Made by a program: the position numbers and the translations under genes | Shown: one piece after another, positions 13,930-41,764 of the stretch | Layout: every line of letters begins with the position of its first letter | Position numbering within the stretch: the stretch's first letter is position 1 | Notes under the pieces: model-generated | Database searches by the model: none | What the model saw: the letters and a program-made list of their open reading frames with translations, nothing else | Told to the model about the DNA's origin: nothing | Sequence record: PQ850603.1 | Origin: Escherichia phage GertrudWoker_Bas73 | Length of the DNA stretch: 43,856 nt | Direction: 5' to 3' (one strand)

Positions 13930-14256
13930 CTATTTACTTTCTGCGCCTATCGCCCACCCTGTCATTACCATTTGCAGACGGGTGGCTGTCAGTAGGCTAT
14001 AGAAAGCATCTCCGTTTTTCTCTACCGAACGTATCACTGTGTAGGTTACGGCCTGCGGGGGTAGGCCCGATTTACCAACCTCCACGGCGGCCTCACACTC
14101 GCGAACTGTAGAGTCCTTGAACGCCTTTACAATAGTAGGGTCGGCTTTATCAAGCACACCAGAAGTCATAAGAACAGATTCACTAAATACCTGTTCGCAC
14201 GGGGCCCCAAAAGTAGCAAAAGACATAAACCCCAGAGCTAATACTAATTTACGCAT
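13930..14256 (-). CDS. small secreted/periplasmic protein
   Basis: N-terminal signal peptide 'MRKLVLALGFMSFATFGAP'; two Cys; first gene behind promoter 14285-14313. Confidence 0.5.
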   Translation of the reverse strand: MRKLVLALGFMSFATFGAPCEQVFSESVLMTSGVLDKADPTIVKAFKDSTVRECEAAVEVGKSGLPPQAVTYTVIRSVEKNGDAFYSLLTATRLQMVMTGWAIGAESK

Positions 14257-24453: not shown

Positions 24454-25874
24454 TTCTTACCTCGTCTCTTCATGTAGTTAAGCAACTCTTCCTGTACCGA
24501 TTTCTTCTCGTCGGTACGCGCGGCAACAACCTCGTCCAGCGTGTCTTTAGCGACTATGTGATAAAGGAACACCGGGCGCTCGTGCCCAGCTTGTTTCTGG
24601 CGAACAGGGCCGATGCGCTCGACAACCTGCAAATAGTGCTCAAGATTCCAGCCTTGTGAAATAAACGCCAGATGATGGCCGCCGTCCTGTAAATTCAAAC
24701 CATGCCCGGCTGACGCAGGGTGTACGCATAAGATTTCTATTTCGCCGCGGTTCCACGCTTCCATCTGCTTATTACCCTTCGCGCCTTTGGAAAACGCCTG
24801 CGCCTGTGGGAATCGCTTAAGGATGCGCTCAAGTTCGTGCTTGAACTGATAGGCGACCAGCAACGGCGCGCCCTGCAACTCCTCCACAATTGACTCCAGC
24901 GCATCAAGTTTCGTGTCGTGCACTTTCTCCCATTCTTTGGTTGATTCGCCATCTGGCCCCGATACATACACGGCACCGGAGGCAATCTGTAGGCACTTCG
25001 ACGTCTTCGCCGCAGCGTTAGCCGCTTCAACTTCTCCGCTTTCCAGTTCCGCGAATAACTTCTCCTCCATATCGATGTACGCCTGACGTGCTTTCTTCGG
25101 CAGGTCGATTTCAACCGGCACAATAATCGGCGCTTCACACCCGAACCACTCGGCGGCGTCAATCGTGAGACTAATGTCCTTCATCTTCTGGTGAATTTCA
25201 TTATCCGCACCCGGGCGTGCGTGGTATTCACGGGCCATCGCAGATTTCCCTTTCTGTACCGAGTTAAACCAGCGGTCGGTGAATGCTGTGTACGATGACC
25301 CCAGGCGCTCGCCTGCGTCGATAAACCAGTTCTGCCCCCACAAGTCCTTGAGGCCGTTTGGTGACGGCGTGCCAGTCAGGTTAATGAAACGCTTAACTTT
25401 GCCAAATGCCACTTTACTAAGCGCCTTTGCCCTCTTGCTGCCTCCAGAACGGCTACGGAATGACTTGAGCTTCGTGCTTTCATCGGCGACGATAACCGTA
25501 AAAGGCCAGTCGTCTTTGCCGTAGTAGTCAATAAGCCACTCGATAACTTCGTAGTTCGTGCACACCACGTTAGCATCTGACTCCAGCGCCGCGATGCGGC
25601 GCTTCTCCAAACCAGTCGCGTCTACGACACGCAGACATGGGAAATTCCACTTAGTTTGTTCCGCCGGCCATGTGCCTGATGCAACGCGCAACGGGGCGAG
25701 GATTAACACGCGGTCCTCTTCTGTAAGCTGCCCGTTGCGGAACAGTCGGTTTAATGTCCACAGTACGCTGCCAGTCTTCCCGGCGCCCATGCTCGCCCAA
25801 ATATTACAGCGATGGTGCCGCAACATGAACGAAGTCATTAGCTTCTGGTATTCGCGCCTTTGAAACTTACTCAT
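24450..25874 (-). CDS. SF2 DNA helicase (DEAD/SNF2-like)
   Basis: Walker A 'SMGAGKTGS', motif II-like 'VIVADEST', C-terminal helicase motifs 'HPASAGHGLNLQ' and 'QVVERIGPVRQ'. Confidence 0.75.
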   Translation of the reverse strand: MSKFQRREYQKLMTSFMLRHHRCNIWASMGAGKTGSVLWTLNRLFRNGQLTEEDRVLILAPLRVASGTWPAEQTKWNFPCLRVVDATGLEKRRIAALESDANVVCTNYEVIEWLIDYYGKDDWPFTVIVADESTKLKSFRSRSGGSKRAKALSKVAFGKVKRFINLTGTPSPNGLKDLWGQNWFIDAGERLGSSYTAFTDRWFNSVQKGKSAMAREYHARPGADNEIHQKMKDISLTIDAAEWFGCEAPIIVPVEIDLPKKARQAYIDMEEKLFAELESGEVEAANAAAKTSKCLQIASGAVYVSGPDGESTKEWEKVHDTKLDALESIVEELQGAPLLVAYQFKHELERILKRFPQAQAFSKGAKGNKQMEAWNRGEIEILCVHPASAGHGLNLQDGGHHLAFISQGWNLEHYLQVVERIGPVRQKQAGHERPVFLYHIVAKDTLDEVVAARTDEKKSVQEELLNYMKRRGKK

Positions 25875-26661
25875 TTACGGCCCCCATGAACGCCTTTATA
25901 AATTCAGCGGCTACTTGCGGGACGATAGCATTGCCGTAACCGCGCAATCGTCCCACTCTGGCGGGTACCCCATTAGCCAGCGGGAATGTGCTGGGTTCAA
26001 CTGGCCTGAATTTTCCATCCCGGCATCCGAGCCAGTCAGCATCTGACCAGAACCCGTTAGGCGGATTGGCTGTGTCAGAGATGCCTCTGTTTGCAGATTG
26101 TGGCCCCCGTTCCTGCCCTGATGGCCTGCTCCCGCCGAGTTGTTCGCACACGGTGTTGGCCAGTTGCTGCGCTCCGAAGAACAATCGATTCCTTTTGTGC
26201 GGTGCGCCGACGCTACAAGCTGGGAGTACGGCAAACCCGACGGCGTAGTCTTCTCTTTCCAGGTGAGTTTGTAAATCGCACATCCACGATTTTGCAATTG
26301 CTGCCGCAACCTGCTCCCCAAAGATGACTGGAGGGTGGCACTCGCTGATGAGGTCGAGGAGCACAGGTGCGAGGTGTCTCTGGTCGAACTGTCCGAGTTG
26401 CTTTCCTGCCGTGCTAAACGGTTGGCAAGGCGGACTTCCCGTCCATATAGGCGTATCTTCAGAAACTCCCGCAAGTCTGAGCGCGAGAGGCCAGCCGCCG
26501 ATACCCGCGAAAAAATGACACTGGGTGAACCCGTCAAGGTCTTCTGGCTTAACTTCGGTAATGCTTCTTTCATCTACAACTCCAAAAGGTATGTGACCCT
26601 GTTTTATCAACTCACGCAGCCACGCGGCTGCGCCTTTATCCCATTCATTGTAATAGTTCAT
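25867..26661 (-). CDS. DNA (cytosine-5)-methyltransferase, compact
   Basis: motif I 'FAGIGG', motif IV '[13 protein letters not shown]' (catalytic Cys), motif VI-like 'FGEQV', motif VIII-like 'KRNRLFF'; only 264 aa. Confidence 0.7.
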
Positions 26662-26849
26662 TTCGCCACCAGCACCAGCTCTTTACGCCCGAACGCCGTA
26701 ACGTTACCGGTTACGTCTTCAATAACCAGTTTACCGTTCGACTCGACGAACACCGTATCAACGGCAACAGGACGACGGGTCTTAACGTTGAAAATCATGT
26801 CGCCTGGTACGATGTCACGTGCTGGTTTGCGGTCATATTCGTGTTTCAT
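26658..26849 (-). CDS. hypothetical protein
   Basis: 63 aa; stop overlaps methyltransferase start (ATGA); preceded by promoter 26884-26912. Confidence 0.45.
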   Translation of the reverse strand: MKHEYDRKPARDIVPGDMIFNVKTRRPVAVDTVFVESNGKLVIEDVTGNVTAFGRKELVLVAK

Positions 26850-27165
26850 TTCTAAATTCCTTATATTGTTGGGGTATGTGCTTACTATAATAGTCTGCTA
26901 TTAGGGTGTCAATCTGTTTTATCGAACCAACGACAAAAACATTTGCGCCACGTTTACGTATACGCTCGTGTTCCCGTAGCTGGTGCGGGTCTGGCTTAGT
27001 GTTTTCGTCTTTCTTCACCTCGACGAACCAGACGATGCCGCCGGGTAGAATTGCCAGCAGGTCAGGAGCGCCTGAACGTCCTTCGTAGGAAAGTTTACGA
27101 ACGAGGCCACCAATAGCCTCGAATCGCTCTTTTGCGTATTTCTGGATGCGGCCCTCTTTAGTCAT
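26833..27165 (-). CDS. VRR-NUC domain nuclease
   Basis: PD-(D/E)XK-like 'GAPDLLAI ... VWFVEVKKDEN'; ~110 aa. Confidence 0.6.
   Translation of the reverse strand: MTKEGRIQKYAKERFEAIGGLVRKLSYEGRSGAPDLLAILPGGIVWFVEVKKDENTKPDPHQLREHERIRKRGANVFVVGSIKQIDTLIADYYSKHIPQQYKEFRNETRI
26884..26912 (-). promoter_or_regulatory. sigma70-like promoter TTGACA-N17-TATAGT with AATAGtctgCTATT palindrome
   Basis: minus strand reads 'TTGACAccctaatagcagactatTATAGT'; lies inside the 3' end of the VRR-NUC ORF. Confidence 0.45.
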
Positions 27166-27314
27166 GACCGCAGCATCCAGGTAAGGAAAACCCAGCCTAG
27201 AATGGCAACACCGGCAAACTGAAAGAACAGGCCGTAACAGAACATAGCAGCTATTCCCGCACCGAGTAACAGTGCGAGCATGGTTACTATGGTCCTAAAT
27301 ACAAACATTGTCAT
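27162..27314 (-). CDS. possible small membrane protein (50 aa)
   Basis: RBS 'gaggggtg'; hydrophobic 'TMLALLLGAGIAAMFCYGLFFQFAGVAILGWVFL'; stop overlaps VRR-NUC start (ATGA). Confidence 0.35.
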   Translation of the reverse strand: MTMFVFRTIVTMLALLLGAGIAAMFCYGLFFQFAGVAILGWVFLTWMLRS

Positions 27315-27396
27315 AATACGCACCCCTCACGTTTCGTATGCTCAATCCCGCAGCGCGGGCAGATTCGGCAGTCTTCTTCATAAAACCAGTAAATTT

Positions 27397-27528
27397 TCAT
27401 TCCAGCACCCACATATAAATTGCGATGAACATGCCCAATATGGCAACCATCATGCCGTATTGTCCCTCGTGACAGTAGACACCGGCGGCAAATCCCGCCA
27501 GTACCGCGATAATCAGTTTACTTGGCAT
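27397..27528 (-). CDS. possible small membrane protein (43 aa)
   Basis: RBS 'gaaggag'; hydrophobic 'LIIAVLAGFAAGVY ... MMVAILGMFIAIYMWVL'; start overlaps HNH gene end. Confidence 0.35.
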   Translation of the reverse strand: MPSKLIIAVLAGFAAGVYCHEGQYGMMVAILGMFIAIYMWVLE

Positions 27529-28213
27529 CTCTACATTCTCCTTCAGGCCACCTATTAGGAAAAGACGGTATATGTGAAACTTCTCTCGCCGCTTTTATTC
27601 TTTTAATGGTGGGACCTATCTCCGTAACCATTTCAATGAATGTAAACCGGTGTCCTCTGGTAAGATTACATGTCTGACAACAAGAAACGCAGTTAGATAC
27701 TATGTGCCCGCTTGTATTATCTATGCGGTCTACCCCGACTTTTGTAGTGCTTCCGCAATAATGGCATGGCTGTGATATTAGTTTAATAACGCTTTCCAGT
27801 GTTAAATCGCAGATAAGCCCTTTTCCTGAATCTGCTCTTTTGTATCCTAACAAAAGCGCGTACGCCCGCGTCCTTTGGTCCTTATTCACCCGTTCCCTGC
27901 GTTGCTTGTTGAGACACTCCCGGCAATCTTTCCTGATATGAGAGCCATTACTTTTATTTCCTTTCCTGAAGTTTTCCTCTGTTAAAGGTTTTACCTCCCC
28001 ACACTTTCTGCATTTAACAGGCTTCCCAGTGAAAACATACCAAGGGCTTTCTCGTCTGGATTTACCTTGTAATTTAAGTTTTTCGTCATACTTTTCCTTC
28101 CTGTTAGCATTTACACACTCTTTACACCAGCGTTGCAGCCCGAGGCGCGTTGACTTTGAAAAATACTCTGTAGTCGCCGGTTTATCTTCGCCGCATCTTG
28201 AACACTTTTTCAT
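27518..28213 (-). CDS. HNH endonuclease (homing endonuclease-like) with N-terminal zinc-ribbon repeats
   Basis: 'CHYCGSTTKVGVDRIDNTSGHIVSNCVSCCQTCN' HNH motif; two 'CxxCGxxKP...CxECxN' repeats; AT-rich versus flanks; track start TTG 28225, ATG 28213 with GGAG RBS preferred. Confidence 0.7.
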   Translation of the reverse strand: MKKCSRCGEDKPATTEYFSKSTRLGLQRWCKECVNANRKEKYDEKLKLQGKSRRESPWYVFTGKPVKCRKCGEVKPLTEENFRKGNKSNGSHIRKDCRECLNKQRRERVNKDQRTRAYALLLGYKRADSGKGLICDLTLESVIKLISQPCHYCGSTTKVGVDRIDNTSGHIVSNCVSCCQTCNLTRGHRFTFIEMVTEIGPTIKRIKAAREVSHIPSFPNRWPEGECRDAK

Positions 28214-28223
28214 TAATAACTCC

Positions 28224-28259
28224 AAAAAAAAATACCGACATAGCCATTATATCGGTATT
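28224..28259 (-). terminator. terminator-like hairpin between polymerase and HNH genes
   Basis: minus strand: 8-bp stem 'aataccga/tcggtatt' with 13-nt loop followed by 'tttttttt'. Confidence 0.4.
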
Positions 28260-28290
28260 TACATTTTCTACAACGTATTTCCTAAATCTA

Positions 28291-30471
28291 CTACTTGGCG
28301 TATCTGTACATTTCGCTACCTTCTGCTACAAGAGGGAACCCCTCCGCCCACTCCGGTAATTCGCACATCAACCGCTCAAGCTCTGCAACATTGTATTCTG
28401 GCGTATCTGGTGTTTCGCAGATAATTTCGTCGTGTACGTGAAGCACAATAGGATAGCCGTTTGCTTCAACGTTCAGCAGTGCATTGGCCAGCAAATCACG
28501 GCACAGCGCCTGAGTACAGTTTTCCACGAGTTTACCAGAGTAGGTGTACTGGAAGCCCCACTGACGGGTTAACTGGTTCTCCCCCTGGTACTTGATGCGT
28601 ACGTTAGTAGACACTTTTCCATCTTCGTCTGTTTCTTTCGACACGCTTAACCCGACGCCCGGATAAGACATAACGCGACCCGACGGCAACGTCATGCGCA
28701 ACCACCAGCCGGCGACTTTGTTGCCGTTGTTGTCTGTCTCTACGTTGCGCGAAAACTTAACCCCCCTAGGCCCCGCGGTGAACTCTTTACCTGGATTGCG
28801 GATAGCGGCCATAGCTGCGTCTTCAATATCTCGCCAGAAAGCTACTGTTTCAGGGTGTGACTCTCGCCACATACGCTTGATAGCGTCACAGGTACGCCAC
28901 ACTTTCTTATCAAGAATATACGATGGTCGGTCATCCTTCTCCCCGGGTCGCGGCGGTCGCTTGGCTTCCTGAATACGTGCCCATTCATAGCCGCGTGCAG
29001 TAGCCGCCCAGATGTGGTCCGGGAAAGTACCGTCCATTGTTTTTGACATATCAACAAGGTCAAGTCCGAGGTTCTTAGCAAACTGAACGAAAGCGCCAAC
29101 ACCACCAGCGTAGCCGAGGCCAAGCTCGCAGGCTTTACCAATCTGGCGCAAGTCTTTGCGTTCCTTCTTAATGTAATCCGGCTCCATGCCGAACATCTTA
29201 CCCGCGGTTACACAGTAAATGTCCAGCCCGGCGCGGAACGTATCTAGCGCGGTTTCTTCGCCTGCCAGCCACGCAAGCCCCCGACCTTCAACGTTAGAGT
29301 AATCGGCGACGACAAACTTTTTTCCGGCTTCCGGGATAATGCAGCTACGCACCGTCGATGCCGTTAGCTTAGCGACATCGAAACGGCGATGCGCGCGGCC
29401 CTTAAGTAACGCTGAAATACCTTTATCCAGTTCATCATCGTGATAGTACCCACGCGCGAGGTTCTGCGGCTGAAATCCTTTACCGGCAAATCGTAATGTA
29501 CGCTTGGCTCCGCCGTACTGAATGCAACCACGACGGCGGTCGTCCGACGAGCGCCCTAACAGCAGCGGGTTATATTTCGTTGACGCTGTGGACGCGGCCC
29601 CGAGGCGCATTTCGATAATCGTGCGTGCGTCGTCCGGTAAATCATCATCCGCCAACAGGTCGTTAAGCGTAGACTTCTGCGCGTTGTGGATGCGGTGCGC
29701 TGGTGCAAGTTCACGCAGAATCGGCAGGAAGTCTTTACCAGTAAGCGAGCCGCCGTATTTGCGCTGTGCTTCTTCCTGTAGCTGGGCCTTGTGTTTTTCC
29801 ACGGCTTCAATCGCGGCTTCCGCCAGCGTCACATCAACCTTAAACCCACGGTCGTTAATCAACTGGTCCAGTTCCAGTACACGGTCTTCGAACTCGGAGT
29901 TACCCCAACGCGGCAGCTTATGGAAGACTTCACGCATCGCAGTGATGTCGCTCACGGCGTACATGATGAACATCGCCCACTCGTCAGGGTGAGTTTCTGC
30001 GGTGTAGCGGCGGATTTTGTAGTTCTTCGGCGTCGGTTTAGAGAAACGCTTAATCAGAGCCTTGCCGCGTTTATCTTTCGCGTTGTCTGCAGACACGCCC
30101 AGCACTTCGCACAGCGCATCAAGAGAACCCGGCAGCGCGTGACGGAACGCCCAAATCATAGTATCAATGGTGTTACTTACCGGAATATCAAAGTCCCAGC
30201 AGTGTTTCATGATTAGGCGATCGAAAAGTCCACCGTTGTGCCACACCATCTTGATGCGGCTGTTGGGCTTAACAAGGCGGCGCAGTGCGCGGTGTAAATC
30301 CCCCGGCATGTCGCTGCCGTCGGTGCAATCCCATACCCGCACAGGTTCGTCGTCAAAAGCATATGTACAGATAAGCACTTCTGTAGTTGGGTGTTCGGCG
30401 TAAGCGTAAGAGCCGACTTTCTTTAAATCGGCTTCGGAGAATGTCTCAAAGTCTAAGAACAGGTAACTCAT
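28291..30471 (-). CDS. DNA polymerase I (family A) with 3'-5' exonuclease domain
   Basis: Exo I 'FLDFETFS'; motif A 'DYSNVEGRGLAWLAG'; motif B 'RQIGKACELGLGYAGG'; motif C 'VLHVHDEI'. Confidence 0.9.
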   Translation of the reverse strand: MSYLFLDFETFSEADLKKVGSYAYAEHPTTEVLICTYAFDDEPVRVWDCTDGSDMPGDLHRALRRLVKPNSRIKMVWHNGGLFDRLIMKHCWDFDIPVSNTIDTMIWAFRHALPGSLDALCEVLGVSADNAKDKRGKALIKRFSKPTPKNYKIRRYTAETHPDEWAMFIMYAVSDITAMREVFHKLPRWGNSEFEDRVLELDQLINDRGFKVDVTLAEAAIEAVEKHKAQLQEEAQRKYGGSLTGKDFLPILRELAPAHRIHNAQKSTLNDLLADDDLPDDARTIIEMRLGAASTASTKYNPLLLGRSSDDRRRGCIQYGGAKRTLRFAGKGFQPQNLARGYYHDDELDKGISALLKGRAHRRFDVAKLTASTVRSCIIPEAGKKFVVADYSNVEGRGLAWLAGEETALDTFRAGLDIYCVTAGKMFGMEPDYIKKERKDLRQIGKACELGLGYAGGVGAFVQFAKNLGLDLVDMSKTMDGTFPDHIWAATARGYEWARIQEAKRPPRPGEKDDRPSYILDKKVWRTCDAIKRMWRESHPETVAFWRDIEDAAMAAIRNPGKEFTAGPRGVKFSRNVETDNNGNKVAGWWLRMTLPSGRVMSYPGVGLSVSKETDEDGKVSTNVRIKYQGENQLTRQWGFQYTYSGKLVENCTQALCRDLLANALLNVEANGYPIVLHVHDEIICETPDTPEYNVAELERLMCELPEWAEGFPLVAEGSEMYRYAK

Positions 30472-40614: not shown

Positions 40615-40923
40615 TTGGATAAATTTACTGAAACAGTGACAGGCTGGCTTCTGGCTGCCGCACTAGCCGGTGGGGTAATCGGACTGCGACAACATAAGTC
40701 CGCTATTTCTGGACCTATCGACGGCTTCTGCTTTATCGCAACTGGCTTCACCTGCGCCGTATTTGGTGCACCTCTCGCCGCTCAATGGTTTGGTATTACC
40801 GGCGAACGCGAGATAGCTGGCCTGGGCTTCATTATCGCTATTCTCTGGATGCCTATCTATTCCCGTCTCTCCGGTATCGTCGCAGGAGAATACATCTCAC
40901 GTCGAGGAGGCCCGGATGAATGA
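40615..40923 (+). CDS. holin
   Basis: 102 aa with three hydrophobic helices and charged C-terminus; TTG start after 'ggagg'; upstream of endolysin. Confidence 0.55.
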   Translation: MDKFTETVTGWLLAAALAGGVIGLRQHKSAISGPIDGFCFIATGFTCAVFGAPLAAQWFGITGEREIAGLGFIIAILWMPIYSRLSGIVAGEYISRRGGPDE

Positions 40924-41188
40924 GCTATTCTGGTTCGGCGGTATGCTGGCAATCGGGGGCACATCGCTGTTTAATGTATATCATCCCAGCGTGGACGACG
41001 GATTATTTGGCCGGGTGCTCTATATCCTGACTGCTATAGTCTGCGCCGCCGGATGTATCCACCTGTTACAGGGCAGCATGTCACCGACGCTGCCTGAGAC
41101 ATTAATCACAGTAGTCGCGCTGCGCCAGATTCGTCAGGCGTGGCTGTCATACGGAGGACATAAGCGTGTCTCGAAATATTTCAGATAA
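40916..41188 (+). CDS. second holin/antiholin-like membrane protein
   Basis: 90 aa, two hydrophobic helices; overlaps previous gene stop. Confidence 0.45.
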   Translation: MNELFWFGGMLAIGGTSLFNVYHPSVDDGLFGRVLYILTAIVCAAGCIHLLQGSMSPTLPETLITVVALRQIRQAWLSYGGHKRVSKYFR

Positions 41189-41278
41189 TGGACTTACCGC
41201 AGATAAGCTGCGCGAGGTTTTACACTACGACCCCGATACCGGAGTTTTCGCGAACCATAAATTACGGGAAGGTGCTTT

Positions 41279-41764
41279 ATGAGAAACATTAGCAACAATG
41301 GCATCAAATTCACCGCCGCGTTCGAGGGATTCCGCGGAACTGCGTATCGTGCTACGCCAAATGAGAAGTACCTGACTATTGGGTACGGTCATTATGGGCC
41401 AGACGTAACGCCAGGCAAGACCATCACCCCGGGACAAGGCCTCCTGTTACTGAATCGTGATATGGCTAAGGCCGTAGCTGCGGTTGACGCAGCAGCACAC
41501 CATTCATTGACACAGGCACAGTTCGATGCAGTGTGCGACCTGGTATACAACGCAGGTGCTGGTGTGATTGCTGCTACTACCGGCACGGGTAAGGCACTGC
41601 GTTCTGGTGATATTGCAACGCTGCGGGCTAAGCTGGCGATGTTCATCAACCAGAACGGCAAACCGCTACTTGGCCTGCGTCGCCGTACTGCGGGCCGTCT
41701 GGCGCTGTTCGACGGTAAACCGTGGCAAGAGGCTGAGGCTATCGGGCGCGCGGTGAAAGGTTGA
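41279..41764 (+). CDS. endolysin (lysozyme-like muramidase)
   Basis: 'FTAAFEGFRGTAYRATPNEKYLTIGYGHYG' with catalytic Glu context typical of phage lysozymes; RBS 'gggaaggtg'. Confidence 0.8.
   Translation: MRNISNNGIKFTAAFEGFRGTAYRATPNEKYLTIGYGHYGPDVTPGKTITPGQGLLLLNRDMAKAVAAVDAAAHHSLTQAQFDAVCDLVYNAGAGVIAATTGTGKALRSGDIATLRAKLAMFINQNGKPLLGLRRRTAGRLALFDGKPWQEAEAIGRAVKG

Follow-up and report, generated by a model that had tools for sequence, protein, structure and literature searches.

Genomic context and organization of the interval

We analyzed a short interval of the minus strand in the window, that is, in the whole 43,856-nt stretch of phage DNA. A 1.7-kb query around the small ORFs of this interval matched 446 phage records, nearly all of them Escherichia or Salmonella Guernseyvirinae. 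The closest match, Escherichia phage SonjaBuckley_Bas74 (PQ850627; 99.6% over the full length), is a Kagunavirus in the extended BASEL collection (PMC11990801). Judging by these matches, the window is a Kagunavirus (Guernseyvirinae) coliphage. The interval belongs to a minus-strand replication/recombination operon that reads polA, an HNH gene that most relatives lack, three small ORFs (sORF-A, sORF-B and sORF-C), a VRR-NUC gene, a 63-aa ORF, a C5 DNA methyltransferase gene and a helicase gene. The family A DNA polymerase gene (polA; 28291..30471, minus strand) was identified from the annotation of Bas74 and other relatives and by sequence comparison. The HNH/endonuclease VII-type homing endonuclease cassette (27518..28213, minus strand) matches phrog_1035 (4.4e-30). 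The downstream partner of sORF-C is a VRR-NUC-type nuclease (26833..27165, minus strand), annotated as a Holliday junction resolvase (Bas74_0037 in Bas74; phrog_93 match, 1.6e-32).

The sequence-only reading placed two minus-strand ORFs of 43 and 50 aa between the HNH and VRR-NUC genes, and both lie exactly where it put them. sORF-A, MPSKLIIAVLAGFAAGVYCHEGQYGMMVAILGMFIAIYMWVLE, extends from the ATG at 27528 to the TGA at 27397 (27397..27528, minus strand; 43 aa). sORF-C extends from the ATG at 27314 to the TGA at 27162 (27162..27314, minus strand; 50 aa), and an alternative GTG start at 27323 would give 53 aa. The good ribosome-binding sites that were claimed can also be read from the sequence. 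The Shine-Dalgarno site of sORF-A, AAGGAG (27538..27543, minus strand), lies 9 nt upstream of the ATG within the 3' end of the HNH gene; that of sORF-C is the Shine-Dalgarno-like GAGGGG (27323..27328, minus strand), 8 nt upstream of the ATG within sORF-B.

This earlier observation is correct yet incomplete, as it missed a third gene. sORF-B, a Cys/His-rich ORF of 29 aa, MKIYWFYEEDCRICPRCGIEHTKREGCVL, runs from the ATG at 27400 to the TGA at 27311 (27311..27400, minus strand). It occupies the 83 nt that separate A from C and shares an ATGA overlap with each of them. The proposed start/stop overlaps with neighbours stand at the outer borders: A starts 8 nt ahead of the HNH stop, so that the two genes overlap by 11 nt, and the stop of C and the start of the VRR-NUC gene share an ATGA. 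However, A and C are not adjacent, since B lies between them. Every junction in the chain from HNH through A, B and C to VRR-NUC is either an ATGA or an 11-nt overlap. By this arrangement the interval is an unbroken run of three coupled micro-genes, and the gene order places the expression of A and C in the replication operon, not the late operon. A further 28-aa ORF, out of frame within B (27295-27381), was rejected as a candidate gene, its length varying between 21 and 43 aa among relatives.

All three small ORFs match known protein families: A matches phrog_10404 over its full length (E 8e-32; residues 1-43 on profile positions 1-43 of 43), B matches phrog_38225 (E 2.5e-22; residues 1-28 on positions 5-32 of 36), and C matches phrog_14925, again over its full length (E 2.7e-28; residues 1-50 on positions 1-50 of 50). 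In Bas74, identical proteins (100%) occur in the same order as Bas74_0040 (A), Bas74_0039 (B) and Bas74_0038 (C), labelled hypothetical. Bas71 too annotates all three as hypothetical proteins, whereas older records such as K1G leave them unannotated. The description of the ORFs as unannotated thus fits the 60-aa ORF track and old records of the K1G kind, but not Bas74, Bas71 or PHROGs. The proteins are already catalogued, as hypothetical proteins and as PHROG families of unknown function, which gives them a name but no explanation. The finding holds, yet it is an ordinary one: these are catalogued hypothetical proteins with no unusual feature.

Evidence for protein coding

We assessed coding potential in a sample of 70 IMG/VR loci around VRR-NUC homologues, in which A, B and C were located without low-complexity filtering; dN/dS values are pooled Nei-Gojobori estimates over unique sequences. 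In the annotated frames, dN/dS was 0.20 for A, 0.08 for B and 0.19 for C, next to 0.10 for the C-terminus of polA and 0.14 for VRR-NUC. Read in the two remaining sense frames, the three genes gave values of 0.8-2.3 (0.8-2.1 for A and C). Internal stops were found in none of the 47 copies of A, 54 copies of B and 26 copies of C. In contiguous loci the junctions are always spaced alike, with 128 nt from A to B, 86 nt from B to C and 149 nt from C to VRR-NUC. This pattern of substitution indicates that purifying selection acts on A, B and C in their own frames and in no other, and that they are genuine protein-coding genes. The sequence-only reading had named lack of conservation in relatives as grounds for giving up its two ORFs; both turn out to be conserved, with dN/dS of about 0.2 and no internal stops. 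The 367-nt apparent gap on the 60-aa track thus holds three selected genes, an instance of phage coding below ORF-length cut-offs.

Two other explanations of the interval were tried and rejected. An antisense gene would have to be the 92-aa plus-strand ORF at 27280-27558, which is broken by 1-5 stops in its frame in relatives. As to an RNA element in place of genes, the Rfam search gave no RNA family within the interval and one sub-threshold match (27 bits versus 55) outside it.

Distribution and interval architectures

The presence of the three genes in phages was surveyed by tblastn against 50,697 phage records. B was found in 444 records, A in at least 223 and C in at least 120, the counts for A and C being lower bounds because the low-complexity filter was on. 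All matches of the Escherichia/Kagunavirus group carry A. Among Salmonella phages, with the same filter, only about one third carry A and fewer carry C. In a large word-indexed collection (5.8 billion proteins), the relatives of A and C are all at least 69% identical. Where the contigs are long, they have the size of a phage genome (40-45 kb). The few relatives that have a name are entered as 'hypothetical' or 'TMhelix containing protein'. By these searches, A and C are lineage-restricted and have a narrow distribution.

To describe how the genes are combined, we took a census of the interval from polA to VRR-NUC in about 53 Guernseyvirinae loci. All three genes are present in 24 loci, A and B without C in 23, B only in 5, and B and C in 2. 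The loci with all three comprise 16 in which A-B-C are contiguous, 3 with the order HNH-A-B-C (including the window) and 5 in which a 64-aa soluble ORF stands between B and C. Among the loci without C, 13 have A-B only. In the others, B is followed by the 64-aa soluble ORF (3 loci), by a 165-aa HNH gene of the SETP3 type (2 loci), by a fragment of that 165-aa HNH gene (1 locus) or by an unrelated 23-25-aa hydrophobic peptide (3 loci), or else a 171-aa HNH gene precedes A-B (1 locus). The soluble ORF of this post-B slot is a conserved, Cys-containing one of 63-64 aa (MSNKPFSKKLAALVDMPEWEF...; loci L005, L024 and L034, at about 2161-2355 or 2310-2504). The unrelated hydrophobic mini-ORFs of 23-25 aa in the same slot are MTMLTTIMIIVAVFLGVAVLSKVTD and MITIIAVLVALLLGAAIFSRIIG (L029 and L053, 2424-2501; L044, 2430-2501).

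The borders of the missing segments are precise. In phages without A, the sequence between two TGATTAT repeats is exactly deleted, so that the first seven codons of A (MLSKLII) are joined in frame to B. These codons overlap the 3' end of polA, and the fusion product is a 33-36-aa variant of B (L014, L019 and L050, Jerseyvirus-type, at about 2254-2508). In phages without C, B is joined to VRR-NUC at the same ATGA, with microhomology ATGA(C) at the junction. Taken together, the loci show B to be the core that is conserved between polA and VRR-NUC, and A and C to be independent, dispensable modules with their ATGA junctions as borders.

The HNH gene upstream of A is rare, being found in only about 3 of the 446 related records and in 3 of the approximately 53 loci. 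In relatives without it, the last 11 nt of polA overlap the start of sORF-A. Here the insertion is flanked by a 10-nt repeat, ATGCCAAGTA. The repeat copy at the polA end has ACG in place of the ATG of A, whose start and Shine-Dalgarno site are recreated by the final codons of the HNH gene. Sequence comparison shows the HNH gene to be a mobile insertion that separates the polA stop from the sORF-A start (region 27518-28260, minus strand).

Different HNH genes occupy two other positions of the same 350-bp interval in relatives (L016, L047 and L054). At the 5' edge of the HNH insertion, just downstream of polA, there is a terminator-like 13-bp AT-rich hairpin followed by a T-run (28230-28260, minus strand). 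It overlaps the sub-threshold Rfam match mentioned above, to STnc240 (27 bits versus 55), which is probably a chance match.

More distant relatives of C were found in an exhaustive profile search with the C alignment against 1.84 billion representatives. It returned two diverged homologues, P0154 (49% identical) and P0155 (43% identical), which lie on metagenomic phage contigs (L075, 318-470; L076, 532-678). Each overlaps the directly preceding polA by an ATGA and has a VRR-NUC-like gene downstream. Identity in L075 and L076 is 72% and 61% for polA and 52% and 46% for VRR-NUC; the other content of these contigs differs, with an N6 methyltransferase and an HNH gene in one and a Mom-like gene in the other. 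Since the diverged homologues hold their place after polA, the C family must predate the subfamily and has kept its position.

These data bear on the possibility that the frames do not encode functional proteins at all and are either chance ORFs or spacers over which ribosomes pass from polA to VRR-NUC. Such a reading would suit the viability of relatives without A or C, in which B joins VRR-NUC directly through the same ATGA. However, a mere spacer would not conserve amino-acid sequence, whereas A and C are under frame-specific purifying selection near the level of the flanking enzymes and contain invariant motifs, and the C homologues, even at 43-49% identity, retain both length and hydrophobic pattern. 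We therefore regard the spacer or chance-ORF reading as highly improbable.

Sequence features and predicted structures

According to the sequence-only reading, the two ORFs encode almost entirely hydrophobic peptides, and their composition bears this out. Their GRAVY values of 1.64 (C) and 1.30 (A) exceed those of every other ATG ORF of 40-60 aa in the six frames of the window, which number 62 with A and C included. Their hydrophobic stretches span 15-24 residues. In A, two such stretches (approximately residues 5-19 and 26-42) flank a polar turn, and C is hydrophobic from residue 8 to residue 48. The prediction of one or two transmembrane helices agrees with hydropathy and with the AlphaFold2 helices, which form a hairpin in A and a long helix in C.

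Four residues in the turn of A, Y18, H20, G22 and Y24, do not vary across the family alignment; C19, E21 and Q23 are conserved at 90% or more, and G25 at 70% or more. The AlphaFold2 model built from this alignment (pLDDT 94.6, pTM 0.68) has a helix at residues 2-20, a turn and a second helix at residues 23-42. Accordingly modelled, A is a predicted two-helix membrane hairpin with a near-invariant polar turn.

C has an invariant small-residue motif, L15-L16-L17-G18-x-G20 (LLLGxG); position 32 is K in the family and Q in this phage. Its model is a single continuous helix at residues 2-49 (pLDDT 91.7). Because this helix is too long for one membrane span, C likely forms two spans hinged near residues 27-32 (Y27-K/Q32) or else an oligomer. 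For both proteins, membrane insertion and topology are read from hydropathy and from the AlphaFold2 helices (pLDDT 92-95), with the proviso that single short hydrophobic peptides come out helical in AlphaFold2 almost by default; A and C are almost certainly inserted.

Structure and profile comparisons gave nothing specific. A Foldseek search with the model of A against viral and PDB libraries had no match at E<=0.001 and retrieved only generic helical hairpins at E>1. No sequence relatives with solved structures were found for A, and the sequences of solved structures gave C only a chance match to a membrane helix, that of beta-dystroglycan (E 0.26). In Pfam, EMC6 scored 19.5 bits with A (cut-off 23.3) and PufX scored 10.6 bits with C (cut-off 25), both below the gathering threshold. 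These scores are compositional resemblance among membrane helices.

Two further ideas about A and C were discarded. Neither protein looks like a lipoprotein of the T5 Llp or Cor type: the contexts of Cys19 in A (G-V-Y-C) and of Cys26 in C (A-M-F-C) do not fit the lipobox [LVI][ASTVI][GAS]C. The two proteins have a VAILG string in common in this phage, but as paralogues they obtain an hhalign probability of only 0.4%.

In B, comparison of the variants shows that C14, C17, H21 and C27 are conserved (C-x2-C-x3-H-x5-C) and that C11 varies. The retroviral-type CCHC zinc knuckle is C-x2-C-x4-H-x4-C. B has the same four ligand types within the same 14-residue span but an unlike internal spacing, and Pfam zinc-knuckle models gave no match to B at E<=1. 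Metal binding by B is putative.

Possible roles of A and C

The chief alternative to the reading favoured below is that A and/or C, which lie among replication genes, tether a replication factory, that is, anchor replication/recombination proteins or DNA to the inner membrane, with B as a soluble adaptor. A and C are embedded in the operon and translationally coupled to polA and VRR-NUC, and B is kept in essentially every relative. Moreover, C homologues at 43-49% identity still follow polA directly and precede a VRR-NUC-like gene, although the contigs are unlike in the rest of their genes. The preservation of C between polA and VRR-NUC at this level of identity could point to a replication-linked role and not to a role in conflict. 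There is also a precedent, as the phi29 membrane proteins p1 and p16.7 have been proposed to anchor replication to the membrane (PMC4974454).

Several observations speak against this tether. Relatives without A (most Salmonella phages) or without C (most of all relatives) are viable, and A and C occur independently of each other. Neither protein has a soluble domain to hold DNA or protein, the helices taking up residues 2-42 of 43 in A and 2-49 of 50 in C. Likeness to phi29 p1 and p16.7 extends to being early small membrane proteins encoded among replication genes. The phi29 proteins are larger (about 130 aa for p16.7 and about 85 aa for p1) and both have soluble interaction domains. In contrast, A and C are almost wholly hydrophobic helices, are absent from many relatives and show no homology to p1 or p16.7; they lack the p16.7-type combination of an N-terminal membrane anchor and a soluble DNA- or protein-binding domain. 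Common descent would account for the shared gene order, since polA and VRR-NUC are also homologous in the L075 and L076 contigs. On balance, we find a tethering role for A or C rather unlikely.

A more elaborate version joins all three peptides into a membrane-tethered micro-complex that localises the polA/VRR-NUC machinery or the replicating DNA at the inner membrane. In such a complex, A and C could be the hairpin and helix anchors and B a CCHC zinc-knuckle-like adaptor. The sole observation pointing to it is the C-type peptide that follows polA at 43-49% identity, and we think this arrangement improbable. If true, it would be a Gram-negative siphovirus counterpart of phi29 p1/p16.7, with all peptides of at most 50 residues.

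Membrane depolarisation was among the activities that the sequence-only reading listed for such peptides. In this case A and C would be host-toxic membrane peptides and would serve host takeover by depolarising or permeabilising the inner membrane, or by blocking cell division or another envelope process, much as type I toxins or small division inhibitors of phages do. Their small size, extreme hydrophobicity and early/middle operon position are compatible with toxicity, and small phage membrane proteins that act in this way are known, PhiNM1 Gp11 (PMC11237401) being one. However, no toxin family was matched in Pfam or NCBIfam (E<=1 or E<=10), the conserved, specific polar turn of A does not suggest a generic pore-former, and a strong toxin coupled stoichiometrically to replication enzymes would be a hazard. 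A Hok-Gef-type antisense regulator was also sought, and no Rfam antisense RNA family was found, a search that a novel antisense RNA would escape. Host toxicity as the function of A and C seems doubtful.

The suggestion that the peptides modulate a holin is disfavoured, and so, more broadly, is any part in lysis timing as holin, antiholin or holin modulator. A and C resemble such factors only in general terms, being small and having one or two hydrophobic helices. A separate lysis cassette of the phage lies on the plus strand at a distance of about 13 kb, with two holins and an endolysin at approximately 40615-41764 and spanins elsewhere, whereas A and C are grouped with replication genes. At E<=1, neither has a match among the holin families of PHROGs or Pfam, and A and/or C are missing from most relatives, many of which have the same lysis genes. 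A lysis-timing function is, in our view, very improbable, and it is likewise unlikely that A and C are part of the core machinery of either replication or lysis.

A and C are selected, hydrophobic and helical, are encoded with replication genes, are often absent and can be replaced by other tiny hydrophobic peptides, a combination that fits accessory small membrane proteins. The reading that we somewhat favour is that A and C are lineage-restricted, non-essential small inner-membrane proteins that bind a larger membrane protein and condition the envelope against other phages or host defences. The three translationally coupled micro-genes would be made together with the replication proteins. 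The hairpin of A would present the turn Tyr-Cys-His-Glu-Gly-Gln-Tyr-Gly at one face of the membrane, and C would form a 50-residue helix or a hinged helix pair with GxG/AxxxA packing motifs. Both would then bind a larger inner-membrane protein of the host or of the phage, as small membrane proteins generally do. The most plausible purpose would be an envelope conditioned against competing phages or membrane-linked host defences, which broadly follows the idea of the sequence-only reading.

The bacterial small regulatory membrane proteins AcrZ, MgrB, MgtS and KdpF offer a parallel. They have 30-50 aa and one or two membrane helices, dimensions shared by A and C, and they act by binding a larger membrane protein, the mode that we infer for the phage proteins. 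A and C differ from them in being phage-encoded and in having no sequence similarity to them in Pfam and NCBIfam searches.

Superinfection exclusion, another activity listed in the sequence-only reading, is unproven for A and C. HK97 gp15-type proteins are small phage inner-membrane proteins of superinfection exclusion. With these and with T4 Imm-type proteins (phrog_1039), A and C share small size, hydrophobicity, a non-essential character and expression before lysis, the last being predicted for A and C from gene order. Neither A nor C matches phrog_1039 (T4 Imm-like superinfection immunity) at E<=1. More generally, no significant match to characterised exclusion, holin, toxin or defence families was obtained in PHROGs, Pfam, NCBIfam, PADLOC and PDB sequences or, with the model of A, by Foldseek, and PADLOC-DB returned no families for A, B or C at E<=10. 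Published functional or expression data for A, B or C were not found in the literature on Guernseyvirinae, Kagunavirus, BASEL and Jerseyvirus omics. Bas74 has a separate Imm-like 'superinfection immunity protein' (Bas74_0023) at a different moron slot, and no Imm-like sequence occurs anywhere in the window. The presence of this gene in Bas74 and its absence here neither support nor exclude an exclusion role for A and C. The corresponding slot of the window (13930-14256, minus strand) holds a 108-aa protein with an N-terminal signal peptide, a member of phrog_14165 (unknown function).

Deletion and expression tests are practical, given that Bas74 is part of the BASEL collection and that genome engineering is done with related Kagunaviruses such as CM001 (PMC11990801). 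Should A or C exclude competing phages or counter a membrane-linked defence, the field would gain a new family of small proteins.

Additional features of the operon

Downstream of the interval, a 220-aa ORF (25911-26573, minus strand) is nested out of frame in the C5 DNA methyltransferase gene (25867-26661, minus strand). It matches phrog_1008, labelled 'DNA methyltransferase' (8e-53), and K1G annotates a second methyltransferase there. In 18 of 19 related loci the nested frame runs for at least 200 aa without a stop, also where the methyltransferase has only 60-75% identity, and it diverges faster than the methyltransferase frame. It may be either an overlapping gene or a propagated annotation artefact.

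A near-consensus sigma-70 promoter-like site, TTGACA-17 nt-TATAGT (11 of 12 matches), lies at 26884-26912 on the minus strand, inside the 3' part of the VRR-NUC gene. It sits upstream of the 63-aa ORF and the methyltransferase gene.
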